From an uncultured Verrucomicrobiae bacterium (lineage in GTDB: Bacteria; Verrucomicrobiota; Verrucomicrobiia; Chthoniobacterales; JAFAMB01), in NCBI GenBank assembly GCA_963736745.1, contig CAVTQD010000006.1, positions 18,898-82,897 of the forward strand: a stretch of DNA of 64,000 bases. Reading direction: 5' to 3'. The translations under genes were made by a program, and so were the position numbers. Below are positions 1,005-25,600 of this stretch, piece after piece; position 1 is the first letter of the stretch, and the number at the start of each line of letters is the position of its first letter. The notes beneath the pieces are model-generated. The model searched no databases. It had not been told where the DNA came from and saw nothing but the letters and a program-made list of their open reading frames with translations.

Positions 1005-1139
1005 CTGGACTTTTATTTCGCGTCAACCAAACACGCTTACGAGCTTATATCTGATTTTCACGCAATCAAGTTGATCGACCCAAGCAGGAGAAACGAATCG
1101 GCGGGCTCAGCGTACCGACCCGCCGATCCGTTTCCCAGA

Positions 1140-7630: not shown

Positions 7631-8753
7631 TACTGAGCGTCATAAATAATTGCGCATTATCTGAAGTTTGCTAAGTTTGGAATATGCGCGCAAGGACGAT
7701 CGACGATGTCGAGGAAATGTTGTGGGTTTGCAAGATGAGATTCGGCGTTCTGAAGAAGCCCGCTATGACCACCGGTTGCACGGTGTTCTCTTGGTAGCGC
7801 AAGGAATGAGTGCACCACAGGTCGCGCAATTTCTTGGGGATGGCACACGCACGGTTGAATATTGGGTCAAGCGCTTCAATGAAGAAGGATTGTCGGGATT
7901 AGTTGAAGGAGAAAGACCCGGGAGGCCTGCACGGCTCTCGGAAGCCCAAGCTAGAGCAGATTGGGGTAATTCTGCAAGAGTGCACGGGCCCACGGCATGA
8001 CGGGAAATCTTTGGGATGGTAAGACGTTGGCTGAGTGGCTACGGCGTAACTGGACAGTGGAGTTGAGCGTTCGCCAGTGTCAGCGACTCTTCCGGCAGTT
8101 GGGCTTCCGTCAACGCAAACCGCGTCCACTCATCGCGCATGCTGATCCGCTTCTGCAACGGGCGCACAAAAAAACTTCGAAGGCTGGCCGTTCATCCGGA
8201 CGTGGACCTCTGGGCTCTAGATGAGGTTCACTTTCAGCAACACGGTTCCCGGTGCCGAATGTGGGTTCCGCCGGAGGTCAAAGAACCCGTCCTGTTGCAC
8301 GCGCCGACGCGCAAAAGCGTGGGCTATTTCGGAGCCGTAAGATTACGCGACGGAAGATTTATTTACGCTCGCGAAGAGGAAAAATTCAACGCTCAAAGCT
8401 GTTGGCAATTCTTGCGGCAGGTGCGTCGGAAGAGCCTTCGGAGCGGTAAACGAGTGGTCATCATTATTGACAATGCGAAGTATCATCACGCGCTCCTGCA
8501 TAAGGCTTGGAGAGAGGAGGCTATGCCTCAATTTGGGCTAGACTTTCTGCCGCCTTATAGTCCTGACCTCAATCCGATTGAGCGTGTCTGGAAACTGACG
8601 CGCCGACTTTGCCTACATAACGTTTACTTCCCAAAACTTGATCACGTACGCGAAACCGCAGAGCGACAGTTCGACCAATGGAACCGTGGAAGCACTGCAC
8701 TCAAAAAGCTGTGTGCAATCGTATAAATACGCAATTACTTATGTCGGCACGTA
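7631..8753 (+). mobile_element. IS630-family insertion sequence (about 1.12 kb) flanked by a TA target duplication
   Basis: Imperfect terminal inverted repeats: 7631-7658 tactgagcgtcataaataattgcgcatt versus the reverse complement of 8726-8753 tacgtgccgacataagtaattgcgtatt (21 of 28 identical by hand). TA is present at 7629-7630 and again at 8754-8755. It encloses a DDE transposase of IS630 type. Confidence 0.85.
7668..8726 (+). pseudogene. IS630-family transposase, three frame changes
   Basis: The HTH part (RLHGVLLVAQGMSAPQVAQFLGDGTRTVEYWVKRFNEEGLSGL) is in frame 0. LEQIGVILQECTGPRH is in frame 1. NLWDGKTLAEWLRRNWTVELSVRQCQRLFRQLGF is in frame 2. The DDE core (LWALDEVHFQQHG...IIIDNAKYHH...FLPPYSPDLNPIERVW) is back in frame 0. 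The shifts lie near 7950, near 8000, and in the A7 run at 8168-8174. Confidence 0.85.
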
Positions 8754-9129: not shown

Positions 9130-10038
9130 TCATGGTCCCGTGACGCCTTTAACAGCGCGACTGATCGCTGAAAGATGTTCGGACGTGGTCCCGCAGCAGC
9201 CTCCAACGATCTGTACGCCGGCGGCAAGTAGCTGTAATGTGGTCGACGCCATCTGCTGGGGCGTGGCGTCGTAAACGGTCCGCTCGCCTTCTGTTCGGGG
9301 GGAGCCGGCATTCGGCTGGATTACCACGTGCGCACCACCCGCAACGGCGACGATCTGTTTTGCAAGTTCGACGTAATCCTTGAGATCGAGCAGAGTGCCA
9401 CAATTTGCCCCGACGATCTGCGCGCCGGAATCAATTGCGCGCTGTATGGCTTCCTCAACGCTGGTGCCCATCATCGTGCGGAAAACGTCCGGCGAGGTCT
9501 TCTGAAAAGCATAGGTCACGATCAGCGGTACACCTGCTTTGGAGGCCTTCGCGGCCTCGATTCCGACGACCGCTTCGGCGGGGTCGCTCATGGTTTCGAG
9601 AAGGATCGCATCCGCGCCTCCAGCAAGCAGCGCCTCTATTTGCACTTGAAATATATCTCGCAACTGATCGGGTGTCGTCTCGCCAACCGGTTCGAGGAAA
9701 TCACCGAATGGTCCGACATCGCCGAGCACCCATCCGGTGTCGCCCGCCGCATCGTGCGCGATTTGCGCGGCGGCACGATTCAATTCCCCCGTGCGATCGG
9801 CGAGGCCGTGGTGATTCAGCATGAAGCTTGAGCCGCCGAACGAGTTTGTCGTGATCAAGTCGGATCCGGCCGAGCGATAAGCATTGTGGATCTCGAGTAC
9901 ATCCGCAGGCCGATCCACATTCCACAGCATGCCACACTCGCCTCCCCTGAGGCCGCGGGCGAGGAGTTGGGTCCCCATCGCTCCATCGCAGCAGAGTCGC
10001 CTTGTTACCAGTTCGCTTAGAAGATCATTTCGTGCCAT
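9130..10038 (-). CDS. Homocysteine S-methyltransferase family protein (MetH N-terminal-like Hcy-binding domain only)
   Basis: 302 aa with CDGAMGTQL, ITTNSFG, IVGANCGT and IVGGCCGTTSEHL, the zinc-thiolate Cys pattern of the Pfam S-methyl_trans domain. No pterin-, cobalamin- or AdoMet-binding domains are attached. Confidence 0.85.
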   Translation of the reverse strand: MARNDLLSELVTRRLCCDGAMGTQLLARGLRGGECGMLWNVDRPADVLEIHNAYRSAGSDLITTNSFGGSSFMLNHHGLADRTGELNRAAAQIAHDAAGDTGWVLGDVGPFGDFLEPVGETTPDQLRDIFQVQIEALLAGGADAILLETMSDPAEAVVGIEAAKASKAGVPLIVTYAFQKTSPDVFRTMMGTSVEEAIQRAIDSGAQIVGANCGTLLDLKDYVELAKQIVAVAGGAHVVIQPNAGSPRTEGERTVYDATPQQMASTTLQLLAAGVQIVGGCCGTTSEHLSAISRAVKGVTGP

Positions 10039-10216
10039 GTAAGTCTAACCTTTACAAGCGCGCGTCGTGGTACGCAATTGAGAGCACGAAATCACAAGAG
10101 AATCATCCAGCCGCTGGTCTGGCGGACATGTGCGACTGGCGGGCCTGCGAGCAGGCAAGCCACTTTCCCGCGACGACTTCAGGAGGTAAGTTTCCTCAGC
10201 CTCAACAAATAGATCT

Positions 10217-11566
10217 ATGAAAACCATGACCTCGCGCCAACGTCTCATCACCACCCTAGAGCATCGCCAACCAGATCGGGTCTGCGTAGACTTCGGAGGC
10301 ACCTGGATCACCGGCATCCACACCTCCATCGTCCACCAACTCAAACAACGGCTTATCGGACCTTCCGCCACCCTGGCCCGTGTTCATGAACCCTACCAGA
10401 TGCTTGCAGAGGTGGACGCCGAACTCAGGGAAGCGCTCGGTGTGGATGTCATTGGCGTTTGGCCGCGTAAGAACCTTCTTGGTTACGAAGCCACTGATTG
10501 GAAACCGTTTACGTTGTTCGATGGCACGCCTTGTCTTGTCCCCGGAAATTTCAACGTCTCGCCGGCTGCCGATGGAGGCTGGCTCATGTATCCTGAAGGC
10601 GACACTTCAGCCCCACCTTCTGCCCACATGCCTAAAGGCGGATATTTCTTCGACACGCTCATTCGACAGGAGCCGATGGATGAGGACAATTTGAACCCGG
10701 AGGACAACCTCGAGGAATTCGGCTTGCTCTCCCCGGAGGACATCGCCTACTACCAGCAACAGGTGGCATGGTTGGACCAAAATGCCGGCGACTACGGGGT
10801 AATCTTGCTCGCTCCCGGCACCGCCTTTGGCGATATCGCTCTGGTTCCTGCCCCGTTCCTCAAGCATCCAAAAGGCATCCGGGACATCAGTGAATGGTAT
10901 ATGGCCACCGCGGCGCACCCGGACTATGTTCATGCTGTGTTCGAAAAGCAGTGCGAGTATGCTTTGAAGAACCTCGACACACTCATTGACATGTTCGGCG
11001 ACCGAGTGCAGGTGGTGGTAACCACCGGTACCGACTTCGGAACGCAGAATAGCCTGTTTATATCCATAGAATCCTATCGGGACTTGTTCAAACCCTATCA
11101 CAAGCGGCTAAACGATCTCATCCATCGGAAGTCGAACTGGAAAGTGTTCATCCATTCCTGCGGCGCGGTAGGGCAGCTGATCCCGGATTTCATCGAAGCC
11201 GGCTTTGACATTCTAAATCCCGTCCAGTGTTCCGCCGCCGGCATGGACCCCGTTCAACTCAAACAAAATTTTGGCCGGGACATCACCTTTTGGGGTGGGT
11301 GTGTCAATACCCAGCACACCATGTATCAGAGCCCTGAGGCAGTGTATCGCGAGGTGCGTGAGCGCATTGACATCTTTAACCAGGGCGGCGGTTACGTCTG
11401 CAACTCCATCCACAACATCCAGGGAAATTCACCGATTGAGAATATCCTCGCGATGTTCAAAGCCATCCACGACAGCAGCGACGAGCTGTCTGCTGCTGCT
11501 CCGGGCGGTCTGGCGCCTGGTTCTGGAAACCAGGGGCATTCGCTGGAAGAAGTCCAACAGAATTGA
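10217..11566 (+). CDS. Uroporphyrinogen decarboxylase family protein (MtaA/CmuA-like methylcobamide methyltransferase candidate)
   Basis: 449 aa. RQRLITTLEHRQPDRVCVDFGG at the N-terminus, FIHSCGAVGQLIPDFIEAGFDILNPVQ (H-x-C-G zinc motif) and GGYVCNSIHNIQ near the C-terminus. It is a paralog of the partial gene at 1..1004. Confidence 0.85.
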   Translation: MKTMTSRQRLITTLEHRQPDRVCVDFGGTWITGIHTSIVHQLKQRLIGPSATLARVHEPYQMLAEVDAELREALGVDVIGVWPRKNLLGYEATDWKPFTLFDGTPCLVPGNFNVSPAADGGWLMYPEGDTSAPPSAHMPKGGYFFDTLIRQEPMDEDNLNPEDNLEEFGLLSPEDIAYYQQQVAWLDQNAGDYGVILLAPGTAFGDIALVPAPFLKHPKGIRDISEWYMATAAHPDYVHAVFEKQCEYALKNLDTLIDMFGDRVQVVVTTGTDFGTQNSLFISIESYRDLFKPYHKRLNDLIHRKSNWKVFIHSCGAVGQLIPDFIEAGFDILNPVQCSAAGMDPVQLKQNFGRDITFWGGCVNTQHTMYQSPEAVYREVRERIDIFNQGGGYVCNSIHNIQGNSPIENILAMFKAIHDSSDELSAAAPGGLAPGSGNQGHSLEEVQQN

Positions 11567-11658
11567 TCGCGCAACGAACCGGTCAGGATTGAGCGCGCGA
11601 GTTTCATAGGGAGAAAATGGGCAATTGCACCAGAGACGAGCCAAGGTCGCACTAACGG

Positions 11659-12438
11659 ATGATCAAACGGAAGAAACAACAGTCGGCCGGCGAGCGACCA
11701 CCACGGCTTGCGCTGTTTGCCTGTCGGGTGTTCGAGCGGGAAATTGCGCTCCACGCGGCCGCCGCCAAACACATCATGGTAACCAGGTATTTCGAGGTGG
11801 GGCTGCACGACCGTCCAGACGAACTTCGTGCGACTCTGCAAGCAGCCCTCTCCGAGGTGGAACAAAGGGACGACATCGAAGCTGTGGTGCTGGCCTATGG
11901 TCTATGCGGACGTGGCACTGCGGGATTGCAGCCATCGAGGCACCGACTCGTCATCCCACGTGCGCACGACTGCATCACGGTTTTCATGGGCAGTAAGGAA
12001 ATCTACGCGGAACACCAACGCCGCTGTCATACCTGCTACTTCTACACGCCCGGCTGGAATCGCGAACGACGTGTTCCCGGCCCGGAACAGCTGGAATCAA
12101 AACGGGTCGAGTTCCTGAAAAAGTTCGATCCCGAGGACGTGGACTTTCTCATTGAAACCGAGCGCGAACAATGGGCGATGTACGACACGGCGACCTATAT
12201 CGATTTAGGAACTGATGATGCCGCGGCGGAAGCGGAATACGCCCGCCGATGCGCCGACTGGCTTGGCTGGAAGTTTGAGCACATGCACGGCGACCCGGCG
12301 CTCCTGCGTGATTTGCTCTGGGGCAACTGGGACGCGGATCGCTTTCAAATCATCGAGCCGGGTTCGCGTTTGGGCCACTCTCCGGACGAAGCCATTCTTC
12401 GATCAGAGCAGGTGGAAACCAAAACGCCCGAACCATGA
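11659..12438 (+). CDS. DUF1638 domain protein
   Basis: 259 aa with VVLAYGLCGRGTAGL and VIPRAHDCITVFMGSKE, the signature blocks of DUF1638. This family recurs next to corrinoid methyltransferase systems. Its stop overlaps the next start (ATGA at 12435-12438). Confidence 0.8.
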   Translation: MIKRKKQQSAGERPPRLALFACRVFEREIALHAAAAKHIMVTRYFEVGLHDRPDELRATLQAALSEVEQRDDIEAVVLAYGLCGRGTAGLQPSRHRLVIPRAHDCITVFMGSKEIYAEHQRRCHTCYFYTPGWNRERRVPGPEQLESKRVEFLKKFDPEDVDFLIETEREQWAMYDTATYIDLGTDDAAAEAEYARRCADWLGWKFEHMHGDPALLRDLLWGNWDADRFQIIEPGSRLGHSPDEAILRSEQVETKTPEP

Positions 12439-14074
12439 AGAGCGGCGAAAGGATCGTGGTGGAATTGGAAGACGGCCAACGCCGGACATTCGCCATCCCT
12501 TCGGGAACCCATTCGCTGGCGGATGTGCTTGCGTTGCAAGGATTGCCGTTGAACACCCGCTGTGGACAGCGTGGACTGTGCCGCGGCTGCGAAGTGACTT
12601 TGCGCGAAGGTACGCTCGCCACCGACGGACGGCCCGTCAATGCGCCCGCCACGATCCAGGCTTGCCGGGCGCGGCTGGTTGGTGACGCAATCATTCATAT
12701 TCCGGCGCGCTCGCGCATGGAACACCAACCGCGGGTTGCCGAGACGTTTGAAATCGCCGTGGCTTATGCGCATCAACCGTTGTTTGCGCCGGTCTCCGGT
12801 ATTCGCGATATGGCATTCGCTGTGGATGTGGGCACGACGACAGTCGTCGTGCTGCTGGTGGATTTGGTGACGGGCGAGGTACTCTCGCGAGCAGGCGGAT
12901 TCAACGAGCAGATTCGCTTTGGCGACAATGTAGTGACACGGATTGACCAAGCAAGGTCGCAGGAGGCCATTGCGTCCCTGCAAAATGCGGTGGTGGCGCA
13001 AACGATTGCGCCCCTGCTGCGGCGCGCCTGCGGGCGGGCGGGGCGGATGCCGGATCGAATCGCCGGGGGAGCGATCGTGGGCAACACGACAATGCTCCAT
13101 CTTCTCGCCGGCGAAGACCCTTCCTCGCTGGGGGTCGCGCCTTTCACCCCGCGATTTATTGAGGGCCGTCGGCTTACCGCCCGTCAAATCGCGCTTGAGA
13201 TCGAAGGACTGCGTCCGGAAACGCCCGTACAATTACTCCCGGGTATCGCGGCTACATTGGGGCGGACATCACGGCCGGCGTGTATGTAACGGGGATGGCT
13301 TTCGACGAGGCCCCGAGCCTGCTGGCGGACGTCGGAACGAATGGGGAAATCGTTCTGCAAAGCGGTGGTCGGCTCACGGCCTGCGCGACGGCAGCCGGGC
13401 CCGCCTTTGAAGGTTGTGGGCTGAGCTGCGGAACCAGGGCGAAGGAAGGAGCGGTGAGCGACCTGCGCTTTACGCTCGATCCGTTCCGTCTTGAGGTGGA
13501 AACCATCGGACAGGTTCCATTGGCGCGAGCAACCGGGGTATGCGGCTCGGCGTACATCGATTTTCTGGCGCTGGCGCGTCGAAATGGACTGCTTGCGGAG
13601 ACAGGACGATTTGAAATCGCGGCCTGGGAAAAAATCCCGGACGGTTACCGCGATGTGAGAGAAGACGAAAGGGCGGTTCGCCTTGGGGATGTCGGCCAGG
13701 CTCGGCAGTGGCGAATCAGCGAAGTGGACGTAGCGCTATTGTTGCAGGCCAAGGCGGCGATCGGGGCGGGCATTGAAACCCTGCTGCTAACGGCGGGGGT
13801 CCCTGCGGAAGAAGTGGGGCGGGTCTGTCTCGCCGGTGGATTCGGGATGCACTTGAATGTAGCCCACGCGATTGCCATCGGACTGCTGCCGGGCTTTCAC
13901 GAAGCACAGGTGCGCGTGGTCGGCAATACAGCGCTGGCAGGCGCCTTGCTGGCGCTGGTGGACCGCAACACGCTTGGGGAAATGGAGGCGCTGCGCGCGC
14001 AGGTTGAAGTCTTCGAGCTGAATCTGGCGGACGGCTTTGAAGACCGCTATATAGAGCACCTGATGCTGCCATGA
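12435..14074 (+). pseudogene. RamA-like corrinoid reductive activase (2Fe-2S ferredoxin domain + ASKHA/DUF4445 ATPase), one frameshift
   Basis: N-terminal CGQRGLCRGCEV ferredoxin-like Cys cluster, then ASKHA phosphate motifs FAVDVGTTTVV and LLADVGTNGEIV. ORFs 12435..13289 and 13280..14074 join as ...LLPGIA-GYIGADITAGVYVTGM if one G is restored in the gcgg run near 13248-13251. Confidence 0.8.
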
Positions 14075-14793
14075 ATGATTTTCCCGCCGTGCCGCTGCTG
14101 GAATACCGGCCTTACGATCGGATCCGAGAATTTTACCTTTATCAGGAACCGCATCTCATCGCTGCCGTCCGGCGGGGAGACCGCGCCGAGGCAAGGAGGA
14201 TCATCAATCATGTGCTCGTCCATATTTACAGTGCCGGCGAGGGACGGAGCGATCTGCTCAAGGGACTTTTATTGGAGCTGGTGGTGATGATTTCAAGGGC
14301 GGCGGTCGAGGCGGGTGCAGTGCAGTCCGAACTGCTCGGCATGAGCTTTCGTCTATTGACTGAGTTAGCGGATATTGACGACGACGAACTACTGGTCGCA
14401 TGGCTGCGCAGGACGCTAGAGAATCTCATGACCGCCATCGAGCGACAGGAGGACTTCACCCCGCCGTTGCTGATCAAAAAAGCGCTCGATTTTATGCGGG
14501 AAAATCTGCACCGGGAGATTTCACGCGACGAAACGGCGCGTTTTGCCGGAATTTCGCCGAGCCATTTTTCACGGTTGCTCAAGGAACGCACGGGACGCTC
14601 GTTCACGGAATTGTTGCGGCAGTGCCGGGTCAATCTGGCCTGCGAACTGCTCGTTAAGACCGACCGGTCGCTGGCAGAGATAGGCGGCGCGTGCGGCTTC
14701 TGCGATCAGAGTTATTTCACCCGGGTCTTTCAGGACGTCAAAGGCGCGACGCCCAGGCAGTTCCGGGCGGCCGCGAGACCTGAGGCGGTTTAG
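14071..14793 (+). CDS. AraC-family transcriptional regulator
   Basis: 240 aa with a C-terminal double HTH (ARFAGISPSHFSRLLKERTGRSFTELLRQCRVNLACELLVKTDRSLAEIGGACGFCDQSYFTRVFQ). The start overlaps the activase stop (ATGA). Confidence 0.85.
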   Translation: MNDFPAVPLLEYRPYDRIREFYLYQEPHLIAAVRRGDRAEARRIINHVLVHIYSAGEGRSDLLKGLLLELVVMISRAAVEAGAVQSELLGMSFRLLTELADIDDDELLVAWLRRTLENLMTAIERQEDFTPPLLIKKALDFMRENLHREISRDETARFAGISPSHFSRLLKERTGRSFTELLRQCRVNLACELLVKTDRSLAEIGGACGFCDQSYFTRVFQDVKGATPRQFRAAARPEAV

Positions 14794-14913
14794 CCTGCAC
14801 CGCTCACGAACCTTTAGAGATTGGTGACCGGTGCAGGCTGGATGCAAACCCACGGCATCGCAAAGCACGAAATCAACAAAGAAACGTTCCAAAGTACAAG
14901 ACCGGTTCGTGAG
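14792..14913 (+). promoter_or_regulatory. Structured leader between the araC-like gene and mtaC: two perfect, mutually crossing inverted repeats
   Basis: agcctgcaccg (14792-14802) pairs with cggtgcaggct (14829-14839). The immediately adjacent ctcacgaacc (14803-14812) pairs with ggttcgtgag (14904-14913). The arms interleave, so they form either a pseudoknot or alternative conformers. Function is unproven. Confidence 0.35.
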
Positions 14914-14936
14914 GATCAATTAATCTGGGACACACC

Positions 14937-15575
14937 ATGAACGACGACGTACATCCTCTTACGCAGGCCATCATCGCGGGGCGCCGCAAGGAAGTCTCAG
15001 AACTGGTTAAACAATGCATTGATGCGGGCGAGAGCGCCGGCTCCATCGTGGAGAAGCGCCTGGTACCGGGAATGGCGGCGGTAGGCGAGAAATTCAAGCG
15101 GCATGAAATTTTTGTTCCCGAGATGCTTATTGCCGCCCGCGCCATGAAGGAGGCACTGAAAATCCTCGAGCCCCTGCTCGTCGCGGCGGGAATTAAACCC
15201 GAGCACAATGCCGTTATCGGGACTGTTGAGGGCGACCTGCACGACATCGGCAAAAACCTCGTCGCCATGATGTGGAAGGGCGCAAACATCAACGTGATCG
15301 ACCTGGGTGCGAACGTGCCCCCCGCGAAGTTTCTCGAAGCCATCAAAGAGCATCAGCCTAAGCTGGTGGGACTATCCGCGCTCCTGACTACAACCATGCC
15401 CGCGATGCGCGACACCGTGAAAGCCATTCGCGATGCGGGACTGAGCTGTAAGATCATGGTGGGAGGAGCTCCGATCACCTTGGAATATGCCCGCGAAATC
15501 GGCGCCGACGGTTACGCACCCGACGCCGGCAGCGCGGTCGATGCGGCGATGGCAATTTTACAGGAAAAGGCCTGA
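14937..15575 (+). CDS. mtaC: Corrinoid (B12-binding) protein, MtaC/MtbC-like
   Basis: 212 aa with an N-terminal helical cap and a Rossmann B12-binding domain. The base-off/His-on motif is GTVEGDLHDIGKN, followed by GLSALLTTTM and MVGGAPI. Confidence 0.9.
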   Translation: MNDDVHPLTQAIIAGRRKEVSELVKQCIDAGESAGSIVEKRLVPGMAAVGEKFKRHEIFVPEMLIAARAMKEALKILEPLLVAAGIKPEHNAVIGTVEGDLHDIGKNLVAMMWKGANINVIDLGANVPPAKFLEAIKEHQPKLVGLSALLTTTMPAMRDTVKAIRDAGLSCKIMVGGAPITLEYAREIGADGYAPDAGSAVDAAMAILQEKA

Positions 15576-15668
15576 ACCCCGGCCCCCGATTACGGGAACA
15601 CGATCAAAGGGAAGGTGGAGGCGCTCCTCGGCGGAGACTGACTCTGTATCACAAAAAAACAATCCACT

Positions 15669-17045
15669 ATGTATTTCAAGTCCCTTGCCATCGACGATCC
15701 CACGGACCTGATCTTTGGCGTTGCCCCCAAACCGTTGACGACCCGCAGCGGAATGGTGATCGGCGGCGGCACCGTTTATCCGGAACTGAACTTTACGCTG
15801 CCACCAATGACGATCGATGCGAGCAGCATGGGAGAGGTTCGCCGCAACTACGAGCAGATCATTGAATTGGCCCTTCGCCGGGCTGCGGAGCTTGATGCGC
15901 CCGGCGTGGTGATCGAGTTTGAGACCCTGCCGCCGATGACGGAGCATCCCGCGTGGGGCTTGGAAATAGCGAAGATTCTGCTGGAGGGCATGCAGCGCGA
16001 GCAGAACAAGAGCGGCCTGAAAAGCGTTCTGCGCATGACGCCCAATGACAACCGCGAGTTCGAGCGTCCCCCATTGATGCGTCATGGCCGCTACTGGGAA
16101 GCGATGCTGGAATTGTTTGAAGGCTCGGCGGCAGCGGGGGCTGAGTTGTTAAGCATCGAATCAGTCGGAGGAAAGGAGCTGCACGACGAGGCACTGGTCA
16201 ATGGCGACTTGGCGCGGAGCCTGTTTTCGCTCTGTATCCTCGGCGAACGCGATATGCGCTTTCTCTGGACGCATCTTCAGCAGATTGCGGACAGAAACGG
16301 GGTGAAATGCGCAGGGGATACCGCGTGCGGTTTTGGAAACACGGCAATGGTGTTGGCTGAACAGAAGATGATCCCGCGGGTCTTCGCCGCCGTCGTGCGT
16401 GCCATGACGGCCGTCCGTTCGCTGGTCGCCTATGAATGCGGCGCAGTCGGGCCGGGCAAGGATTGCGGCTACGAAAATCCGATCCTGAAGGCGATCACCG
16501 GTTATCCCATGGCGATGGAAGGCAAGACCTCGGCCTGCGCGCACCTCAGTCCGATGGGCAACCTGGCCGCCGCCGCCTGTGATACCTGGTCGAACGAGTC
16601 GGTTCAGAACATCAAGCTCCTCGGGGGCATGGCTCCGACCTGTTACATGGAGCAACTTATTTATGATTGCCGCCTGATGAACACCGCGCGCGCAAGCGGG
16701 CGCGAGTCCGCACGAATGCTTCAGCGTTGGCTGGTGGATTCCGACGTGGCCTCCGATCCGCAGGCGTTCATCATTTCCCCGGAGTCCTCGGTCGAGCTGG
16801 CGCGCGTGATTGTCGCCGCCGACTCACACTATCATGCAGGTGTGGCGGTGGCCCGGAAAGCAGTGGAGTTGCTGCGCACGGCGCACGAGGAGGGCAGGGT
16901 GCGGATTGCCAAGAACGAAACCGACTGGTTCGGCACGATGCAGGACGCCCTGGACGAACTACCCGAAACCGAGGGACGATTTATTGAGACGCAACTTGCG
17001 CTGGCCGACACCAGTCAGTTCCTGCAGTCCGAATACGGATTGTGA
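15669..17045 (+). CDS. mtaB: MtaB-family methanol:corrinoid methyltransferase homolog
   Basis: 458 aa, collinear with archaeal MtaB as I recall it: LLSIESVGGKE, AGDTACGFGNTAM, SLVAYECGAVGPGKDCGYENPILKAITGYPMAMEGKTSACAH, CDTWSNESV. The Glu/Cys/Cys contexts that bind zinc in Methanosarcina MtaB appear conserved. Confidence 0.85.
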   Translation: MYFKSLAIDDPTDLIFGVAPKPLTTRSGMVIGGGTVYPELNFTLPPMTIDASSMGEVRRNYEQIIELALRRAAELDAPGVVIEFETLPPMTEHPAWGLEIAKILLEGMQREQNKSGLKSVLRMTPNDNREFERPPLMRHGRYWEAMLELFEGSAAAGAELLSIESVGGKELHDEALVNGDLARSLFSLCILGERDMRFLWTHLQQIADRNGVKCAGDTACGFGNTAMVLAEQKMIPRVFAAVVRAMTAVRSLVAYECGAVGPGKDCGYENPILKAITGYPMAMEGKTSACAHLSPMGNLAAAACDTWSNESVQNIKLLGGMAPTCYMEQLIYDCRLMNTARASGRESARMLQRWLVDSDVASDPQAFIISPESSVELARVIVAADSHYHAGVAVARKAVELLRTAHEEGRVRIAKNETDWFGTMQDALDELPETEGRFIETQLALADTSQFLQSEYGL

Positions 17046-17297: not shown

Positions 17298-18275
17298 ATG
17301 CGCAATTCGCACCCGATCGTTTCGAGGCTTTTCCTCCTCGGCTTCCTTGCTTTAGTCAGCTCAGTGAGCGTGCCGTCTAAGGCCGCTACTTCTGACCAAC
17401 TCTATGTTGAGGTGTCTGCTCTTGGCAGCCTCGACTATTTCTACGATCACAAATTGGGCCTGCAGGAGGCGGGCAAAGCGATGGGCGTGCAAACCGCCTA
17501 CGTAGGTCCCGCCAGCTATGATATGTCTGCGATGATCACTGCGTTCGAACAGACCATCGCGCGTAAGCCCGCAGGCATCATCGTTGTCGGCTTTGAATCT
17601 TCCCTGAACGCAATTGTGGACAAAGCAGAAGATGCGGGCATACCCGTCGTCACAGTTGACGCCGACCTGCCTGGTTCCAAGCGCATTGCCTTCGTCGGCA
17701 CCGGGAATCTACAGGCGGGCTACGAAGGTGGCAAGACGCTCTCGCGGTTGATTGGAGGAAAAGGCAAGGTGGCCTTATTGACCAAGCCAGGACAATCCAA
17801 CCTGGAGGAACGCATCGCGGGCTATAAGAAAGCTTTTGGCGAAAGCAAGGATATACAACTGGTACAGGTGGCTGATACCCAATCCGATCCGAGCGTCGCG
17901 GCACAGGCCGCGGCGTCTCTTCTCCAGAAATTCCCCGACCTGGGTGGAATCGGTTGCGTGGAAGCGGCGGGCGGCAGCGGGGCAGCGACCGCGGTCAACG
18001 AAGCCGGTAAGAAGGGGACGGTGAAGATTGTTTCCATGGATCGTGGCAACGATGTGTTACAAGGTATTAAAGACGGTGTGATCTCCGCAACCGTTGTGCA
18101 GCAAACCGCCCTCATGCCTTTTTACGCGCTCCAGATTCTCTACAATCTGAAGAACCATCCGATAGCGATCTCCAACGATAACGCGGCGGCGCATGTCCTC
18201 GGTGTACCAGCGGTAGTAGATACCGGCGTGATTATTGTCGACGAGCACAATTACCAGTATTTCATGCGCAAATAG
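17298..18275 (+). CDS. Sugar ABC transporter substrate-binding protein (CUT2 type)
   Basis: 325 aa with a signal peptide (LFLLGFLALVSSVSVPSKA) and PBP type I blocks (KPAGIIVVGFE, GIPVVTVDADLPG, VKIVSMDRG). Confidence 0.85.
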   Translation: MRNSHPIVSRLFLLGFLALVSSVSVPSKAATSDQLYVEVSALGSLDYFYDHKLGLQEAGKAMGVQTAYVGPASYDMSAMITAFEQTIARKPAGIIVVGFESSLNAIVDKAEDAGIPVVTVDADLPGSKRIAFVGTGNLQAGYEGGKTLSRLIGGKGKVALLTKPGQSNLEERIAGYKKAFGESKDIQLVQVADTQSDPSVAAQAAASLLQKFPDLGGIGCVEAAGGSGAATAVNEAGKKGTVKIVSMDRGNDVLQGIKDGVISATVVQQTALMPFYALQILYNLKNHPIAISNDNAAAHVLGVPAVVDTGVIIVDEHNYQYFMRK

Positions 18276-18376
18276 GCGTCTTTTTGGTGGCAACAATGCT
18301 GGCAGGAAAAGGAAATCTTCCAGCGGCTAGCCAGCGCAGTCATCGGTTTTCGAATAAAAACAGGTGAAGTTGTCCG

Positions 18377-19889
18377 ATGGATGAATCGAACATGCTTGAG
18401 CTTCGAGGCATCACCAAAGAATTCCCAGGGGTGCGCGCAATTGATGACGTCAGTTTTGAGCTTCGGCGGGCCGAGGTGCATGCTGTGGTGGGCGAGAATG
18501 GCGCGGGCAAAAGCACGCTGATGAACATGGTCGGCGGGGTTCTGCAGCCCGATGCGGGCGAGATCTTGCTTGAGGGCAATCCGATTCAGTTTGCAAATGC
18601 GGCTGCTGCGGGCCGCCGAGGGATCGCGGTCGTCTTTCAAGAACTCAGCTTGGTTCCGGAGCTCAGCATCGCTGAAAACATTTTCTTCAATCGACAACCG
18701 GTCAACACTCTCGGTTTTGTCGCCACTGCTCGTCTTTACGCCCAAACCAAAGAACTGCTGAGTTTGTTCAATCTCGCGCTTAAACCCGCACGTCTCGTCA
18801 AAGACCTGTCAATGGGAAACCGCCAGTTGATTGAGGTGCTGAAAGCCATTTCTCTCAAGCCTAAAATCCTCATCCTGGATGAACCAACCTCATCGCTCGG
18901 CGCCGCGGAAAAGGATCTGCTCTTTGCCAATATTCGGCGCATGAAGTCAGAGGGTGTGAGTTTTCTTTATATCTCGCATCATCTTCCTGAGATTTTTCAG
19001 ATTTCCGACCGAGTGACCGTGCTGCGTGATGGCAAACGCGTCGGCACCTTTCCAAACTTCGGAACTTAGCAAAGAATCGCTGGTAAAGCGCATGGTCGGG
19101 CGGGAGTTGACGAACATGTACGGGCAACGAAGGCCGCCAATCGGGGAAATCTGTTTCCGATACGAACGCTTGAATGATCAAAGCGTTGCCCTTGAGCTGC
19201 GAAGCGGTGAAATTCTGGGACTCGCGGGACTAATCGGTTCCGGGCGATCAGAGCTCGCGCAGGAGATCGTAGGTATCGCTCCCAATTCAGCTTCCAGAGT
19301 TTACCTGGATGACCAGGAGTTTAGTTTCAGGCACCCGGCGGAAGCGATTCAGCGCGGTATCGTCTATCTTACAGAAGATCGGAAAGATTCCGGTCTGTAC
19401 CTGTCCATGTCTGTGCAGGAAAACTGCGTGGCGCCTACATTGGCAACTTTTGCGAATTCTTTCGGCTTTCTTTCGGATCGGAAAATCGCCTTGGCTGCTG
19501 GCGCCGCCAAGCGGGATTTTAATATTGCTACTCCCAGCATCCGTAAAGCGGTCTCGCAGCTATCCGGGGGTAACCAACAGAAGGTCCTTCTGGCAATGTG
19601 GATCGGGACAAAGCCGCGCGTGTTGATTGTCGACGAACCAACGCGAGGCGTGGACGTAGGAGCGAAGTCAGAAATTTACCGGTTGCTGCGAGATTTGGCT
19701 GAAGACGGCGTGGCGATTCTGATGATCTCCTCTGAACTTCAAGAAATCCTGGGAATGAGCGATCGAGTAATTGTCTTTCGCGATGGCCGCAAGGTAGCCG
19801 AATACGATCGCAAACAGGCCACTGAAGAGAACCTAATTCTTGCCGCGACCGGGGTGGGGTTGTCCCCGATCCAAGGGAGGGCGGCGTGA
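18377..19889 (+). pseudogene. Sugar ABC transporter ATP-binding protein (two ABC domains), one frameshift
   Basis: ORFs 18377..19069 and 19026..19889 join as ...VLRDGKRVGTF-QTSELSKESLVKRMVGREL, with a one-base insertion near 19049-19054. Walker A GENGAGKST and signatures LSMGNRQLIEV and LSGGNQQKVLLA are present. Confidence 0.85.
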
Positions 19890-20905
19890 AGGGGGGATTG
19901 GAGCCTGCGGTTCAATCCGAAAAGTCGTCCGAAGGTCGCCCTCAATCCGGGTCACGGCAACTGATCGGGCGGCTGACCAATTTCCGGGAGTTCATGATCC
20001 TGGCCATCATCATCTTCGGCTGTGTATTGATGAGCTTTGCGTCTCCGATTTTCATGACGTTTGGGAATTGGTCGGCGCTGCTTCTTCAGGTGTCGGTGGA
20101 ATGCATCGTGGCGATCGGGATGACCATTCTGCTGGTGAGTGGCGGGTTTGATCTATCCGTGGGATCGACATTTGCCTTGGCCGGCGTCGTCACGGCAATG
20201 TCGATCTCCGCTGGAGTGCCGGTCTTTTTTGCCCTTTTATTCGGTCTGGCAGTCGGCGGATTGGTCGGATTGGCCAACGGATTGATCATCGCAAAGATTG
20301 GAATCAATCCTTTCGTTACCACCCTGGCCATGATGAGCATCCTGCGTGGCACTCTTCTCGTAATCACGAGCGGTCGGAATATTTCGGGCCTGCCCGCCTC
20401 CTTCAAAGTTATCGGTCAAGGCAACTTCCTCACGGTACAGAACCCGATCTGGATCGCGCTGATCCTCGTGCTTATAGGCGACATTCTGCTTCGCAAATCG
20501 CGCTTCTTTCGGCAGAACTATTACCTTGGCGGCAACGAGCGTGCCGCGTTTTTGTCCGGTATCCGCGTCGAGCGCCTGAAGATCTTTAATTATGCACTGA
20601 CCGGTATGCTTGCGGCGTTGGCCGGAATCATCATGACCGCTCGACTCGGGACCGCTTCGGTGACGGCTGGAACTGGTCTTGAGCTCGCCGTTATTTCTGC
20701 AGTGATCATTGGCGGAGCCAGTCTCAAAGGCGGAGAAGGAACAGTTCTGGGCTCTTTTCTCGGTTCCTTGTTGATGGGGATTCTCGTGGGAGCCCTGACC
20801 TTGCTCGGCGTCGACGTTTATTGGAACACCTTGGTGATCGGATCCACGCTCCTTATTGCGGTGCTCATCGACAACCTTGGGCGACGAAGGCGCAGTCTGC
20901 AGTAA
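19886..20905 (+). CDS. Sugar ABC transporter permease (CUT2 type)
   Basis: 339 aa multi-pass membrane protein with GGFDLSVGSTFA, NPFVTTLAMMSILRG and ISAVIIGGASLKGGEGT. The GTG start overlaps the ATPase stop (GTGA). Confidence 0.85.
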   Translation: MKGGLEPAVQSEKSSEGRPQSGSRQLIGRLTNFREFMILAIIIFGCVLMSFASPIFMTFGNWSALLLQVSVECIVAIGMTILLVSGGFDLSVGSTFALAGVVTAMSISAGVPVFFALLFGLAVGGLVGLANGLIIAKIGINPFVTTLAMMSILRGTLLVITSGRNISGLPASFKVIGQGNFLTVQNPIWIALILVLIGDILLRKSRFFRQNYYLGGNERAAFLSGIRVERLKIFNYALTGMLAALAGIIMTARLGTASVTAGTGLELAVISAVIIGGASLKGGEGTVLGSFLGSLLMGILVGALTLLGVDVYWNTLVIGSTLLIAVLIDNLGRRRRSLQ

Positions 20906-20970: not shown

Positions 20971-22659
20971 TTAAAGCTCGAATCGAACAAATGGCAACCC
21001 GCGCAGGAGCTGAGGAATCCAGCGCTTCATGCCGCGTCTGGCCACGGGGTGAAGCCAGGCGCAAGGTGTCCCAGTTCGCGCAATCCGACGCAGAATTTGC
21101 CGCAACCGGATCAAAGTCTCGGCCGGATTTTCCCCTGGATCCGGACTGGCCAGGCCGTCTGAAAAGATTACCAGCCGATCCTTGGGGGCATTTCCTTTGC
21201 GTAATTTTCCGCGATGCAGACAAGTAATCCCTTCTATAATCTGGCTCTTTCCAATGGCTTCCCGCACCAGCTCTAGCGCGTTCTGAAAAGCTGTCGCGGT
21301 CGCATTTCGTGTGGCCCACCGGATTTCCCCTGCGGCAAGGACGACAAGATGAAATCGCCAGGATTTTAGGCGCGACGGCACTCCGGCAAGCACGTTACGC
21401 GCGGCGTCTAGGAACTGATTCATGCCGGTGGAGCGACTCGCATCCAGAAAGCACCAGAAGCTTTCCCTGCTTGGAAGCGAGCGATATTGGAGACGCATTG
21501 GGCCTCCGTTATCGAGCCAGCCGCTTTTGATTGAAAACAGGAGCGTCTCCAGCCAGGCAATTGAACCTCGTGGTTGGACGAAAACCTTGGCGTTTGTTAA
21601 TCGTGCCAGCACGGTCGCAAAATCTGGCGAACTTCCACGGACCCAAGTCAGAAACTGAAAAAACGAATCGGGTTTTAACAAGCCTACGACCTTTGGATCG
21701 GGCCGGGACCCCAGCGGCGCGCTGGACGTTTCTGTCGATCTATTCCCGAACAAAGGCGGGCGCGTAGCCGGAGGGGGCGATGGCGACTTGGGCGGGCCGG
21801 ATTGATCAGTTCGCCGATGCCCAAGGCAAAGGCGCCACGCTTCCTCAATGTCGCGTTCTTCGACTGAACGGCGATCATCGAAAGCAGCCGCACATCGCGC
21901 GGTCCGGACAACGGCCAACTCAGCGCGGAGGCCTTCGAGTTTGAGCTCCCTTCCGTTCGCAGCCACTGTCATTCGTTGATCGTCCGAAACAAGGACCTTT
22001 GTTATTCGCCGCCGCGCGAGTGCAACACGGTCCGCCAATTCAGACACCGACGGCACGAATCCCGCGATAAACCTCTCGGGATCGTCGTCAAAAGCGATTC
22101 GGCGCTTTACTATCTCAACGCGTTGCTGATGATTAAAATCATCCCGAATCAGGACGCCGTGCGCGAACCGGTCAGTGAGCTGAGGCCGAAGATCTCCTTC
22201 ATCCGGGTTCATCGTTCCAACCAGGATATACCGGCTTTCGACAGATCGCGTGATCCCATCGCGTTCCATGCGGTATTGGCCGGAAGCCGCCGAATCAAGA
22301 ATGTAATCTGCGAGATGATCCGGTAGCAGATTGATCTCATCGATGTAAAGGACGCCGCCGTGTGCCTCCTCAATCAAACCGATTCGTCCTGACCATTGCC
22401 TCTTTTCGACAAGAGCCTCGGCGTTCACCGAACCCAGCAAACGATCCTCCGTCGTCCCCAGAGGGACTTCGACAAATGGCGCGGTCTCGGTTGAGACTAA
22501 GCGCAGAACCTCGGCGAATGACCGGACCAATGTGCTCTTCGCACAGCCGCGATGACCGAGAAAGAGCGTACCCCCGATGCGTGGATCGATCGCGTGGTAA
22601 ATCAGCGATTTTTTCGCGTCCTCCATTCCGACAATGGCGGTGAACGGGAACGAGATCAT
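20971..22659 (-). CDS. Chelatase ATPase subunit, ChlI-like AAA+ domain fused to a ChlD-like vWA domain
   Basis: The start MISFPFTAIVGMEDAKKSLIYHAIDP was chosen because its ATG overlaps the cobN stop (ATGA at 22656-22659). AAA+ motifs: GHRGCAKST and VLYIDEINLL. It has a Pro-rich linker and a C-terminal vWA domain with MIDAS-like FLDASRSTG. The upstream part of ORF 20971..22959 is out-of-frame cobN. Confidence 0.8.
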   Translation of the reverse strand: MISFPFTAIVGMEDAKKSLIYHAIDPRIGGTLFLGHRGCAKSTLVRSFAEVLRLVSTETAPFVEVPLGTTEDRLLGSVNAEALVEKRQWSGRIGLIEEAHGGVLYIDEINLLPDHLADYILDSAASGQYRMERDGITRSVESRYILVGTMNPDEGDLRPQLTDRFAHGVLIRDDFNHQQRVEIVKRRIAFDDDPERFIAGFVPSVSELADRVALARRRITKVLVSDDQRMTVAANGRELKLEGLRAELAVVRTARCAAAFDDRRSVEERDIEEAWRLCLGHRRTDQSGPPKSPSPPPATRPPLFGNRSTETSSAPLGSRPDPKVVGLLKPDSFFQFLTWVRGSSPDFATVLARLTNAKVFVQPRGSIAWLETLLFSIKSGWLDNGGPMRLQYRSLPSRESFWCFLDASRSTGMNQFLDAARNVLAGVPSRLKSWRFHLVVLAAGEIRWATRNATATAFQNALELVREAIGKSQIIEGITCLHRGKLRKGNAPKDRLVIFSDGLASPDPGENPAETLIRLRQILRRIARTGTPCAWLHPVARRGMKRWIPQLLRGLPFVRFEL

Positions 22660-25600
22660 TCGAGTTGGCCTTGCAGTTCGAGCAATTTGATTCCAGCGCG
22701 GCAACCGTGTCCTTGTCCGGGCACTCCCATAAGCCGCGTTCAGCCGCTTCCAACAAACGTTCGGTGGCCTCTTCCAGCGCCGCCGGGTTGTGCCGCCGGA
22801 AAAATTTTTTTTGTTCAGAGTCGAGCAAGAGCGCCCAGGCGACCTGCTGATAATGGACATCCTTGATGAGATTGGTCGTCGCCCCGTAGCCGAAGAGGTA
22901 ATCCACGGAAGCGGCCATCTCAAAGGCGCCCTTGTAGCCATGGCGCCGCATCGCTTCAATCCATCGAGGGTTAAGCACGCGACTATGAATCACCCGTACG
23001 AGCTCTTCTTCCAAGGTGCGGACGCTCGGTTGTTCAGGACGGCAGGAATCGCCATGATAAGTCGCGGGAGCACTCCCGCGAAGCTCTTTGACTGCGGCAT
23101 GCAGCCCACCCTGAAATTGGAAATAATCGTCTGAATCAAGAATGTCGTGTTCGCGGTTGTCCTGGTTTTGATGCACCACATCTATTTCGGAGAGGCGCGC
23201 ACGGAAGAGGGCGATCTGCTCGTCGGCCGAACCATCACTATCAAACGCGAATCCGCCCCATCGGCAAAAGACTTCCACTAGATCGCATTTTGACTCCCAA
23301 TTGCCTGCATCCATGAGCGGGAGCAGCCCGGTCCCATAGGCGCCGGGCTCCGAGCTGAAGACTCGGAGAGCAGCGACCCGAGCCGCTTCCTGGCTAGGCA
23401 TTCCTCGTTCAATCGCGATTTGCCGATCTCGCAGCCACGATTCACGGATTGGATTCATCTCGAGAGGCTCATCCTGCTCCGCCAATCTTTTTGGAACGGC
23501 GGCAACCAACCGCATCGTTTCGCCAAAAGCATCACGGAACATTCCTGACACACGCAACAAGACGTCCACACGCGGCCTCCCGAGAAGACCTAAGGGCAGG
23601 ATTCGGAAATCCACAACACGGCCCGACACTTCTTCCCAAACTGGTTCGCATCCCCACAGGCACAAGGCCTGTGCGATGTCATCGCCTCCGGTGCGCATAT
23701 TGGAGGTGCCCCAAACAACCAAAGCAAGTTTACGCGGGTATTCTCCCTGCTCCTGGCGATGCCGCTCCATCAACTGGTGCGCCATGGCTTTGCCGCATTG
23801 CCAGGCTGTCTGTGTGGGAACAGCGCGGGGATCAATCCCAAAAAAGTTTCTCCCGGTTGGCAAGACATCGATTCGACCGCGAGTCGGTGCTCCAGCCGGG
23901 CCCGGGGGAACGAACCGTCCGTTCAGGCCATCGAGCAGATTTTGCAGCTCGTTTTCACACTGAGATAATCTCGGGATCACCTGTCGTAGCACGAACGTAC
24001 GCAATCGCTCTAGATCTTTATCCGGGGAGGTCTGGGCTTCCGGCTCATCTTTGGCCGAATCGCGCGTGAGCGCATCCCCGTCATCCGACGCGGTAGCAAC
24101 AGAGCAACTCCTGCCCTCTGCCGGAGAACACCGCTGCGTTCAGTGCGCGGCGCCGCCGAAAGCAGGAAAGCTCGGCCACGACGGAGCGCGGCTCTCTACC
24201 GCTCTTCAGGATATCGCTTAACCACGTTCGCGCCCTGGCTTCCAACGCATCGCGTTGGGCTGAAGTGAGATCGTCGAGTTTGGGCCCGGACGGGAGCTGC
24301 TCGCATTCTCCATCGGTACGGCTATCTATGCCGCTCGAGTTCAATGCTTCCAGCAACCCTGGCCGGTCCCCGCTGGGAACACGAACCAGGCTCAGCAGAA
24401 AATCGATCTCCCGCTCGCCAGTTGGTCTCTCTCCCAGAACGTGCAAAGCCGACCGAATCTGACTTTCCTTTATATCGCAGAGAAAGCTGCCAATTGCCTC
24501 GATCGACTTGGTGCCATTCGGCAAGTCGTTGCGCCAACTCGAATGCTCCAGCATTTGACGGATTTCGCGCTCAAGCTCGATAGCGCGGCTTGGATAAAGG
24601 CTCAAACAGTGGGCATGTTCTTCGAGCAAGCGCTCCATCTTTTCCAGGTCGCCGTACAATCCGGCCCTGGTCAACGGCGGAGTCAGGTGATCGACAATGA
24701 CGGCAGCGGTTCGCCGCTTGGCCTGAGAGCCTTCTCCAGGGTTGTTGACGATGAAAGGATAGAAATGAGGCAATGGGCCAAGACAAAGCCAAGGATAATC
24801 ATCCCCGCCGAGCGCAACACTTCGGCCGGGTAACCATTCCAGATTCCCATGCTTACCGAGATGCACAACCGCGTGCGCACCAAATGTTTCGCGAATCCAG
24901 AGATAAAAAGCAAGATATTCGGGTGGCGGCGGTAAGGTAGGACTATGGTAGATCGCTTGCGGTTGTAAAGAATAGCCCCTTGGGGGTTGGATCCCAACAA
25001 AGACGTTACCGAGTTGTATACCTGCTCACGGGTACGTTTTCCGCAAAAGCCAACTGCCAGTCCCGGCCAAGCTCATCTCGACGTTTCGGCGGCAATGATC
25101 CGAGAAAAACTTCGAATTTTTCCCGATTCATTTCCTGGTAGCAAGGCTTCCCATAAGATCGCTCGCGATCATTGGTGACTCCCGACTGTAACCAACGCAT
25201 CAACTCTTCGCCGTCTCGCGGGCAAGGTTCTACCAGGTATCCTGCTGCACTCAAACGGGACAACATTTTCACCGTGCTGGCGGGCGTGTCGAGTCCAACA
25301 CCATTCCCGATTCGACCGTCACGATTCGGATAGTTGGAAAGAACAATGGCAAGTCTCTTCTTCGAGGGTGGTACCCGACGCAGTGAAGCCCAATTCTTCA
25401 CCCAATCGGCAACATGACTGATCTGTGAGAAATCAGGCTTTAACCGCTTCAGCGTGAACTCGATTTCCGCGAGCCGTGTCTCCTCCTCCTTAAAACCGAT
25501 CACGGTGCCGAACAGACGACCGTCAATCTCGGGCAGCGCGACGTTCATCGCAGACCTCCGCCGGGGCCAAACCGCCGAGACTGCCGAGCCAGGCCTCCTT

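Follow-up and report, generated by a model that had tools for sequence, protein, structure and literature searches.

Methionine synthesis in Phaeobacter inhibens needs three separately encoded pieces of methionine synthase together with a RamA-like protein and a DUF1638 protein, and DUF1638 is co-distributed with the RamA-like protein (PMC5764234). In Ruegeria pomeroyi, such pieces also take part in the catabolism of a methyl donor: MtgC, the corrinoid protein, and MtgD, the pterin module, serve both in the making of methionine and when glycine betaine is demethylated by MtgB, and the synthase is completed by a stand-alone homocysteine (Hcy) module, MtgE, formerly annotated as Bhmt. The genes for the pterin module, the Hcy module, the corrinoid protein and the activase are scattered over the R. 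pomeroyi chromosome (PMC12478193). Among proteins of the UroD superfamily, the O-demethylases OdmB and VdmB are known as donor-side methyltransferases I (PMC10418091). Bacterial mtaB genes in metagenome-assembled genomes (MAGs) from peat, soil and floodplains have been reported as a potential for anaerobic methylotrophy (PMC10805028, PMC11264602). Here we describe an island of seven genes from an uncultured soil bacterium of the Verrucomicrobiae (assembly GCA_963736745.1, contig CAVTQD010000006.1) in which an MtaB-family protein, a corrinoid carrier, an Hcy module, a RACo/RamA-type activase, a DUF1638 protein, an AraC-family regulator and a long URO-D-superfamily protein are encoded together. 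The island lies at 9130-17045 of a stretch of 64,000 nt (positions 18,898-82,897 of the contig), the whole of which was analyzed and is called the window.

We prefer the view that the island is a modular hub of corrinoid-dependent methyl transfer, built on core components of a split methionine synthase that depends on cobalamin, by which the methyl group of methanol, and also that of an O-methyl compound, would reach methionine. We hold this view tentatively, at a probability of about 0.45. Since four members of the island (Hcy module, carrier, RamA-like activase and DUF1638) match the split synthase of Rhodobacterales, with MtaB replacing MtgB, a route from methanol to methionine is plausible. 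A modular split methionine synthase that is also a methyl-donor demethylase is already known. What is new here is the combination of MtaB, Hcy module, DUF1638 and URO-D; in the literature we found no description of MtaB linked to an Hcy module, DUF1638 and URO-D paralogs.

From the gene set we infer the catalytic steps, what the URO-D protein acts on and which way the methyl groups flow, as follows. The 212-aa corrinoid protein would be the methyl carrier, and the activase with DUF1638 would return its cobalt from Co(II) to Co(I) with the use of ATP. MtaB would load the Co(I) carrier from methanol, released, for example, from pectin or other methyl esters by polysaccharide-degrading hosts. The long URO-D protein would probably be a second donor-side enzyme and charge this carrier as well, taking the methyl group from a sugar or cyclitol that is imported in O-methylated form. 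The Hcy module would then move the methyl group of CH3-Co(III) to homocysteine to give methionine, the sole exit encoded in the island, and the AraC protein would regulate the set.

Enzymes of the island and their recurrence

Gene families were assigned by Pfam and NCBIfam profile searches of the translated open reading frames (ORFs) of the window. Strong matches were obtained for seven adjacent genes (six plus-strand, one minus-strand), of the families and at the positions that a first-pass annotation of the window had proposed (Table 1).

The MtaB protein matches the Pfam family PF12176 at 546.6 bits, its residues 3-457 covering profile positions 4-460 of 460. The segments SIESVGGKE, GDTAC and GKDCGYEN align to Glu164, Cys220 and Cys269 of Methanosarcina barkeri MtaB (PDB 2I2X, chain A), the zinc ligands of that protein. 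The Glu/Cys/Cys contexts, already thought to be conserved from the first inspection, are thus retained on alignment. Identity to the M. barkeri protein is 38%, and the score against the equivalog model of methanogen MtaB (NF040651) is 417.5 bits, under the cut-off of 720. Judged by sequence, the window protein is a member of the same family as methanogen MtaB, in a separate bacterial clade, and a predicted methanol:corrinoid methyltransferase. Relatives at 84-87% identity number in the hundreds and abound in Verrucomicrobiota, and the named ones belong to Limisphaerales, Verrucomicrobia subdivision 3 or Terrimicrobiaceae.

The carrier gene ends 93 bp upstream of the MtaB start. The protein has the motif GDLHDIGKN, which had been picked out as that of a corrinoid protein. 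Its GDLHDIG contains the DxHxxG signature, with D100, H102 and G105 aligning to D757, H759 and G762 of MetH. Among NCBIfam models the carrier is nearer to the MtgC and MtbC types (187 and 172 bits, respectively) than to archaeal MtaC (117-128 bits).

The best NCBIfam matches of the Hcy module are the N-domain of YitJ (240 bits) and the alphaproteobacterial 'BHMT' PRK07534 (225 bits), with MmuM at 107 bits. The module is 36% identical to the Hcy domain of Escherichia coli MetH, and C213, C281 and C282, in GANCG and GGCCGT, align to Cys247, Cys310 and Cys311 of the Cys3 zinc site of MetH. In its resemblance to MtgE and to the Hcy module of MetH, the protein is likely to be the acceptor-side enzyme that passes the methyl group from methyl-corrinoid to homocysteine. 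It appears to be the single recognizable acceptor enzyme for methyl-corrinoid in the island.

Table 1. Features of the island and its borders, with positions in the window
Feature	Position	Strand	Basis
Stand-alone homocysteine S-methyltransferase domain (Hcy module), 302 aa	9130-10038	-	S-methyl_trans 223 bits, full length
Divergent intergenic region, 178 bp, between Hcy module and URO-D gene	10039-10216	.	gene coordinates
Long URO-D-superfamily protein, 449 aa	10217-11566	+	URO-D 68 bits, residues 220-419 (C-terminal half only)
DUF1638 protein, 259 aa	11659-12438	+	Pfam DUF1638 135 bits
RACo/RamA-type activase	12435-14074 (ORFs 12435-13289, 13280-14074)	+	Fer2, Raco_middle, RACo_C_ter
AraC-family regulator, 240 aa	14071-14793	+	HTH_18, HTH_AraC
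Corrinoid (cobalamin-binding) carrier, 212 aa	14937-15575	+	B12-binding_2 + B12-binding
MtaB family, 458 aa	15669-17045	+	Pfam MtaB 547 bits, full length
Terminator-like hairpin + T-run, 48 nt past MtaB stop codon	17093-17118	+	terminator scan
Second ABC transporter, sugar type, immediately downstream: binding protein, split ATPase and permease	17298-20905	+	Peripla_BP_4 182 bits; ORF list
IS630-family element between rbsD and Hcy module gene	7631-8753	+	HTH ORF 7668-8000; DDE_3/IS630 transposase 8139-8726, different frames

A scan of one genome per species yielded 80 MtaB loci, all from MAGs, of Verrucomicrobiota, Planctomycetota, Acidobacteriota and Armatimonadota. With four metagenome loci obtained earlier included and four duplicates discarded, the non-redundant set again numbered 80. 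Similar layouts recur in many uncultured bacteria of peat and soil. Neighbors were counted by phmmer searches of the window proteins against six-frame translations within 10 kb of MtaB. The corrinoid protein was found in 63 of the 80 loci, a URO-D homolog of any type in 48, AraC in 46, RACo in 36 and DUF1638 in 34. In 19 loci MtaB has a URO-D gene as its immediate neighbor, which in L001 is of the long type. The position of the AraC gene, between the activase and the corrinoid protein, is conserved: the order DUF1638-RACo-AraC-MtaC-MtaB recurs in L014 and L065, and L079 has RACo-AraC-(one ORF)-MtaC-MtaB with no DUF1638 call there. Co-occurrence of MtaB with homocysteine methyltransferase neighbors had been suggested as a check in the first-pass annotation, and the Hcy module was found near MtaB in 15 of the 80 loci, across four phyla. 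This is far above the back-of-envelope expectation of ~0.4% for one given gene in a 20-kb window of a ~5-Mb genome.

The gene order argues that the Hcy module is tied to methyl-transfer genes beyond mere proximity, because it occurs in same-strand strings with them. In two Acidobacteriota loci (L015 and L024) the string is a major facilitator superfamily (MFS) sugar porter, the long URO-D, the Hcy module, DUF1638 and RACo. In L173 it is flanked by URO-D genes on both sides, the downstream one overlapping it and the upstream one abutting it. When homologs of the Hcy module were looked up independently of MtaB, three of five were in methyltransferase islands.

Two other neighbors of MtaB recur. 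A COG0523/CobW-like GTPase, possibly a zinc chaperone for zinc methyltransferases, is present in 13 of the 80 loci (e.g., L076, 5121-6176), and a DUF6580 protein in 18 (e.g., L079, 5698-6291).

The absence of a pterin-binding domain from the cluster, remarked on at the outset, extends well beyond it. None was found within 10 kb of MtaB in any of the 80 loci. The pterin-binding domain of E. coli MetH had no match in the whole 64-kb window or in 84 related loci (six-frame phmmer, E = 50, filters off), and a search with the MetH reactivation domain at the same settings (phmmer, E = 50, filters off) was likewise negative in the window and every locus. When a locus with a distant, truncated Pterin_bind fragment of the dihydropteroate synthase (DHPS) type was added, the same pterin query ranked that fragment first (E = 0.06); the search would therefore have caught a protein of the MeTr or MtgD type. 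A pterin-binding gene was absent also from the additional loci examined beyond the 80. The MtgD component that goes with a split methionine synthase is thus missing from the window as well as from every locus examined. Among these loci metF was found in none and folD in only one.

Several observations weigh against the preferred view. In the Rhodobacterales precedent, on which the analogy would lean, pterin module and carrier are encoded far apart. Only 15 of the 80 loci have an Hcy module near MtaB. The other two of the five Hcy homologs (L177 and L178) are in housekeeping contexts without corrinoid genes, one of them beside rpsM-rpsK-rpsD-rpoA, which suggests that methionine metabolism in the phylum regularly includes a stand-alone Hcy module; the protein might then serve in general metabolism or in salvage. 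In L011 (7295-8143) and L017 (8091-9104) the gene that adjoins the Hcy module on the same strand is purU, and purU adjoins it also in the P0292 context, as judged from the gene table alone. As PurU is a deformylase of formyl-tetrahydrofolate, its position hints that folate one-carbon metabolism or oxidation is involved after all. Finally, a catabolic flux of methyl groups would be too large for methionine alone to absorb.

Much of this would be accommodated if the host carried a full analogue of MtgBCDE, the most serious of the alternatives, although we consider it unlikely. An MtgD-like pterin methyltransferase would then be encoded elsewhere in the genome, most of the methanol methyl would pass to methyl-tetrahydrofolate (methyl-THF) and be oxidized (MetF, FolD, PurU), methionine would normally draw its methyl group from methyl-THF, and the island would not work independently of folate. 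The local absence of a pterin gene says little here, given that the R. pomeroyi modules are chromosomally scattered, and Hcy homologs in housekeeping contexts suggest a constitutive methionine synthase in need of a general methyl donor; the purU neighbors point the same way. However, most characterized bacterial corrinoid methyltransferase systems cluster the THF methylase with the carrier, whereas no pterin-binding gene accompanies MtaB or was seen in the additional loci, and metF and folD are all but missing from the loci. The first-pass annotation had proposed that methanol methyl is passed to homocysteine in a split, methionine-synthase-like manner rather than to folate. The first part of the proposal gains from the gene set, from the recurrence of the Hcy module and from the Rhodobacterales precedent. 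The denial of a folate route was overstated in view of the scattered precedent, purU and the housekeeping homologs.

The long URO-D protein and its sugar context

Two thiol-type second methyltransferases had been proposed for the island, the Hcy module and the long URO-D protein. The former, with its MetH zinc triad, remains a candidate. The latter is not supported in that role: its distal Cys is not conserved, its scores against MtaA and MtbA models are far too low, and its context is that of a sugar porter.

At 449 aa the window protein exceeds the family norm of about 420 aa. In an alignment of 30 family sequences (66-93% identity), the invariant residues are H313 and C315, which make up an H-x-C motif, C338 and H399. 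Cys395 of the window protein sits at the position of the distal ligand of MtaA, but most family members have Phe there. Against the NCBIfam models of MtaA, MtbA and MtaA-CmuA, the scores are 18-36 bits where the cut-offs are 235-600 (PRK06252, 35.9 vs. 244; TIGR01463, 30.8 vs. 235; MtaA_Meth, 27.4 vs. 400). Sequence searches of the PDB with the protein alone and with the family profile gave nothing useful, and only a fold search placed it. The AlphaFold (AF2) model, with a pLDDT of 82.7, is a URO-D (TIM) barrel with a beta-rich insertion of ~75 residues. Its top Foldseek match is M. mazei MtaA (4AY8_A; E = 9e-13, TM 0.52/0.67, ~15% identity), with UROD structures next.

The neighborhood of the long URO-D was examined in 58 loci from metagenomes, each no shorter than 6 kb. 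The commonest neighbor is an XylE-like MFS sugar porter, which adjoins the gene in 26 of the 58 loci and is usually the next gene on the same strand. A corrinoid protein is nearby in 6 loci and MtaB in 1. A neighborhood rich in porters and poor in MtaB and carriers is more in keeping with an enzyme on the substrate side than with one on the acceptor side. Other contexts of URO-D and MtaB islands include genes for aldose epimerase, rhamnose mutarotase, GFO_IDH_MocA and IolE-like proteins, glycoside hydrolases, rhamnosidases and pectin enzymes. In two islands (L172 and L173), three to five URO-D paralogs surround one carrier, one MtaB and one Hcy module, their metal motifs being H-x-C...C, H-x-C...H or H-x-D...H; several paralogs with one carrier is the layout of systems where donor-side enzymes share a carrier. 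On the basis of the porter adjacency, the multiple paralogs and the known donor-side O-demethylases of the UroD superfamily, the long URO-D protein is probably a donor-side methyltransferase for an imported O-methyl sugar or cyclitol. That so few carriers are found near it (6/58) counts against this part of the preferred view and leaves its corrinoid dependence a candidate property.

Candidate oxygenases are found in the same surroundings. In L172 and L173, oxygenase genes of an FA_desaturase-like or PhyH-like type accompany some of the URO-D paralogs, such pairs following AraC regulators of their own. In 13 of the 80 MtaB loci, a fused protein of FA_desaturase, MocE-family Rieske ferredoxin and NqrF-like FNR parts is encoded beside the long URO-D and MtaB (L044, 5016-7499; L086, 3794-6076). 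We take it to resemble MocDEF, an oxygenase proposed to demethylate the rhizopine 3-O-methyl-scyllo-inosamine. It may be an O2-dependent counterpart for the same substrates as those of URO-D.

A different reading, which we consider quite unlikely, would make the sugar side primary. A folate-independent corrinoid system of PVC-type and acidobacterial polysaccharide degraders would have URO-D enzymes that demethylate sugars or cyclitols (e.g., 2-O-methyl-xylose and -fucose, 4-O-methyl-glucuronate and pinitol), and the methyl group would leave as methanol via reverse MtaB or enter methionine. Were it true, carbohydrates could be demethylated independently of O2, and a methionine synthase would be linked to methanol in organisms other than methanogens and acetogens. 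In the literature we found no description of corrinoid-dependent demethylation of methylated sugars, nor of URO-D with a polysaccharide context in Verrucomicrobiota.

An improbable alternative is a canonical methanogen-like system in which URO-D would be an MtaA-like second methyltransferase to a thiol (an unnamed cofactor, sulfide or a mercapto-acid) and the Hcy module a bystander; in essence this is the new thiol acceptor that the first-pass annotation offered as an option. The order corrinoid protein-MtaB-URO-D does recur, with URO-D flanking MtaB in the 19 loci mentioned; the best fold match is an MtaA, the long URO-D has the H-x-C motif, and some of the 336-aa paralogs beside the Hcy module in L172 and L173 have the full H-x-C...C pattern. 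But the long family has H399 and C338 in place of a conserved distal Cys, falls far below the cut-offs of the MtaA-type models, and mostly resides beside a sugar porter without MtaB or a carrier. Moreover, we know of no coenzyme M-type acceptor in these phyla.

We are just as doubtful of a methyl-ether 'hydrolase', in which the URO-D enzymes would move the methyl group of a sugar or cyclitol to the carrier and MtaB, running in reverse with water as acceptor, would free methanol, the Hcy module being a minor side exit. Corrinoid protein, MtaB and URO-D are often the whole local set, amid glycoside hydrolases, rhamnosidases, pectin enzymes, sugar transporters and inositol-type genes, and the MocDEF-like fusions, as candidate O2-dependent demethylases, recur alongside. 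The MtaB step is near equilibrium (about -7 kJ/mol), so that reversal at low methanol would be feasible. However, no MtaB is known to run physiologically in reverse, aliphatic methyl ethers offer little driving force for hydrolysis, and MtaB is near the long URO-D in only 1 of the 58 loci; the support for reversal is contextual.

Surroundings and integrity of the island

The activase has the 2Fe-2S, middle and ASKHA domains of a predicted ATP-dependent reductive activase of corrinoid proteins, as first annotated, and its start overlaps the DUF1638 gene by 4 bp (translational coupling). DUF1638 would be its partner, by this coupling and by analogy to the Rhodobacterales system. The two ORFs in which the activase is read in the window are, however, one gene: one base is absent at 13249/13250 of the expected PGIAGYIGADITAG coding sequence. 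Illumina contigs of relatives from two soil metagenomes (X1 and X3) have an extra G or A after 13249, restoring PGIAGYIGADITAG. Further 1-nt indels between the window and the same contigs are found at 5038, 5595, 5752, 5785, 6165 and 6639, of which 5038 and 6639 coincide with splits of the rbsA-like ABC ATPase and the PfkB kinase, respectively. Since the missing base is present in Illumina contigs and similar indels are found elsewhere, the frameshift is an assembly error and the activase is intact; a pseudogene was considered and rejected on the evidence of these independent contigs. The nearest relative belongs to a long-read soil MAG collection. The indel pattern is typical of long-read assembly, and the ORF calls of the window thus need frame correction. 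The cobN gene (22370-26374) is also in pieces. That the island is decaying and functionless, as the split activase and the abutting IS630 copy might suggest, is scarcely credible when the missing base is found in independent contigs, 1-nt indels are many in unrelated genes of the window, all seven proteins keep their catalytic residues, and the nearest homologs found are 84-87% identical for MtaB and URO-D and about 70-88% for the Hcy module.

Upstream of the island are a ribose-type ABC (ATP-binding cassette) transporter, a PfkB kinase, RbsD and the IS630 copy. Downstream, the binding protein of the second transporter has weak best NCBIfam matches to rhizopine and allose binding proteins. A cobalamin cluster follows at ~20924-43752, with ChlID-like AAA, CobN, CobW, CbiJ, CbiG, CbiC, CobQ, CobD-like and CobT genes. 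A close relative (L005), whose DNA is 93-98% identical to the window where segments are shared and whose MtaB is 98% identical, is collinear with it through the island and both transporters. It does not have the IS630 segment, nor any of the ~22.8-kb cobalamin cluster, the flanks of which (20923 and 43753) are joined save for ~1.2 kb of unmatched DNA. The adjacency of the B12 operon is therefore strain-specific. The operon is there, as the first-pass annotation said, but its proximity as a sign of a corrinoid-dependent lifestyle is weakened by a relative that has the island without the operon at this site. The B12 cluster is variable and possibly mobile.

The Hcy module and the URO-D gene presumably share a promoter region in the interval that separates them. 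This interval has one sigma-70-like match at 10078-10106(+), which is no more than chance would give. The hairpin downstream of MtaB may end the transcription unit, its position alone being suggestive: terminator-like sites across the region are fewer than the shuffled expectation, and the promoter and terminator scans as a whole are at chance level. An Rfam scan of the window found no cobalamin riboswitch and no other RNA family, and no RNA-seq run containing the island was found.

Other features lie farther from the island. At 61979-63097 (-) is an IF-2B-family protein, probably the methylthioribose-1-phosphate isomerase MtnA of methionine salvage. The segment 58000-62000, which spans an ABC ATPase (59107-60705) and a permease (60671-61759), has a G+C content of 0.64-0.65 compared with about 0.55 elsewhere, and may be foreign DNA. 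A 553-aa protein with a DUF455 (ferritin-like) domain is encoded at 882-2543 (+), alone upstream of the first sugar ABC transporter.

Comparison with known systems

Current counts of environmental mtaB leave the destination of the methyl group unaddressed. The local gene set of the island and its 80 relatives excludes the folate-type second methyltransferase of acetogens, and its recurring partners are instead the Hcy module, URO-D paralogs, DUF1638 and the RamA-like activase. Should the methyl group of methanol or of methylated sugars pass straight into methionine, the recently described link between donor catabolism and methionine would extend from marine Rhodobacterales to abundant soil phyla, the hosts would gain a B12-dependent process beyond the known use of B12, and the environmental mtaB counts would have to be interpreted anew. 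The pair of long URO-D and sugar porter provides a lead to an O2-independent carbohydrate O-demethylase.

Methanogen MtaCB and MtaA (2I2X, 4AY7/4AY8) share with the island the MtaB fold family and the Glu/Cys/Cys zinc site, and MtaA is the best structural match of the URO-D protein. They are set apart by the modest identity (38%) of the window MtaB, which stays below the equivalog cut-off, by its MtgC/MtbC-like carrier and by a URO-D without the conserved distal Cys. The MtaB/MtaC/MtaA systems of the acetogens Acetobacterium woodii, Eubacterium callanderi and Moorella thermoacetica (PMC13391211) likewise have an MtaB-family donor enzyme, an adjacent corrinoid protein and activation of the RACo type. 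Acetogen MtaA, however, is a methyl-corrinoid:THF methyltransferase of ~30 kDa encoded in the mtaBC operon (PMC13391211), and the island has no such gene. Unlike acetogens, the hosts of the island are polysaccharide-degrading bacteria of the PVC type. No Wood-Ljungdahl gene names were seen among the partial Pfam annotations of the loci, in which no search aimed at them was made.

OdmB, VdmB, MtvB and the type 1 mlp clusters (PMC10418091) resemble the island in having URO-D-fold methyltransferases with a carrier and a Ram/RACE activase. Their paralogs share a carrier, and the mlp clusters are without a THF methylase. The hosts in these cases are strict anaerobes, mostly Firmicutes, and the substrates are phenyl methyl ethers, or methyl-S/Se compounds as proposed, whereas the island is in a context of sugar transport and catabolism. 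The island URO-D is likened to these proteins by context and description, not by sequence.

The closest likeness is to MtgBCDE, accompanied by a RamA-like protein and DUF1638, of Rhodobacterales. Both systems have a stand-alone Hcy S-methyl_trans protein, a carrier with cap and B12-binding domains, a RamA/RACo activase and DUF1638; in both a donor methyltransferase feeds the same carrier (in the island, as proposed here), and the hosts are heterotrophs that are neither acetogenic nor methanogenic. The systems differ on the donor side, where the island has MtaB, predicted to use methanol, and URO-D, and Rhodobacterales have MtgB of the MttB superfamily. They differ also in the pterin-binding MtgD, present in Rhodobacterales and found neither in the island nor near the 80 MtaB loci; in layout, the parts being mostly clustered in the island and scattered in Rhodobacterales; and in phylum, the island being one of Verrucomicrobiota and allies. 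In the island as in the split MetH of Rhodobacterales, the RamA/RACo activase and DUF1638 would stand in for the reactivation domain of MetH.

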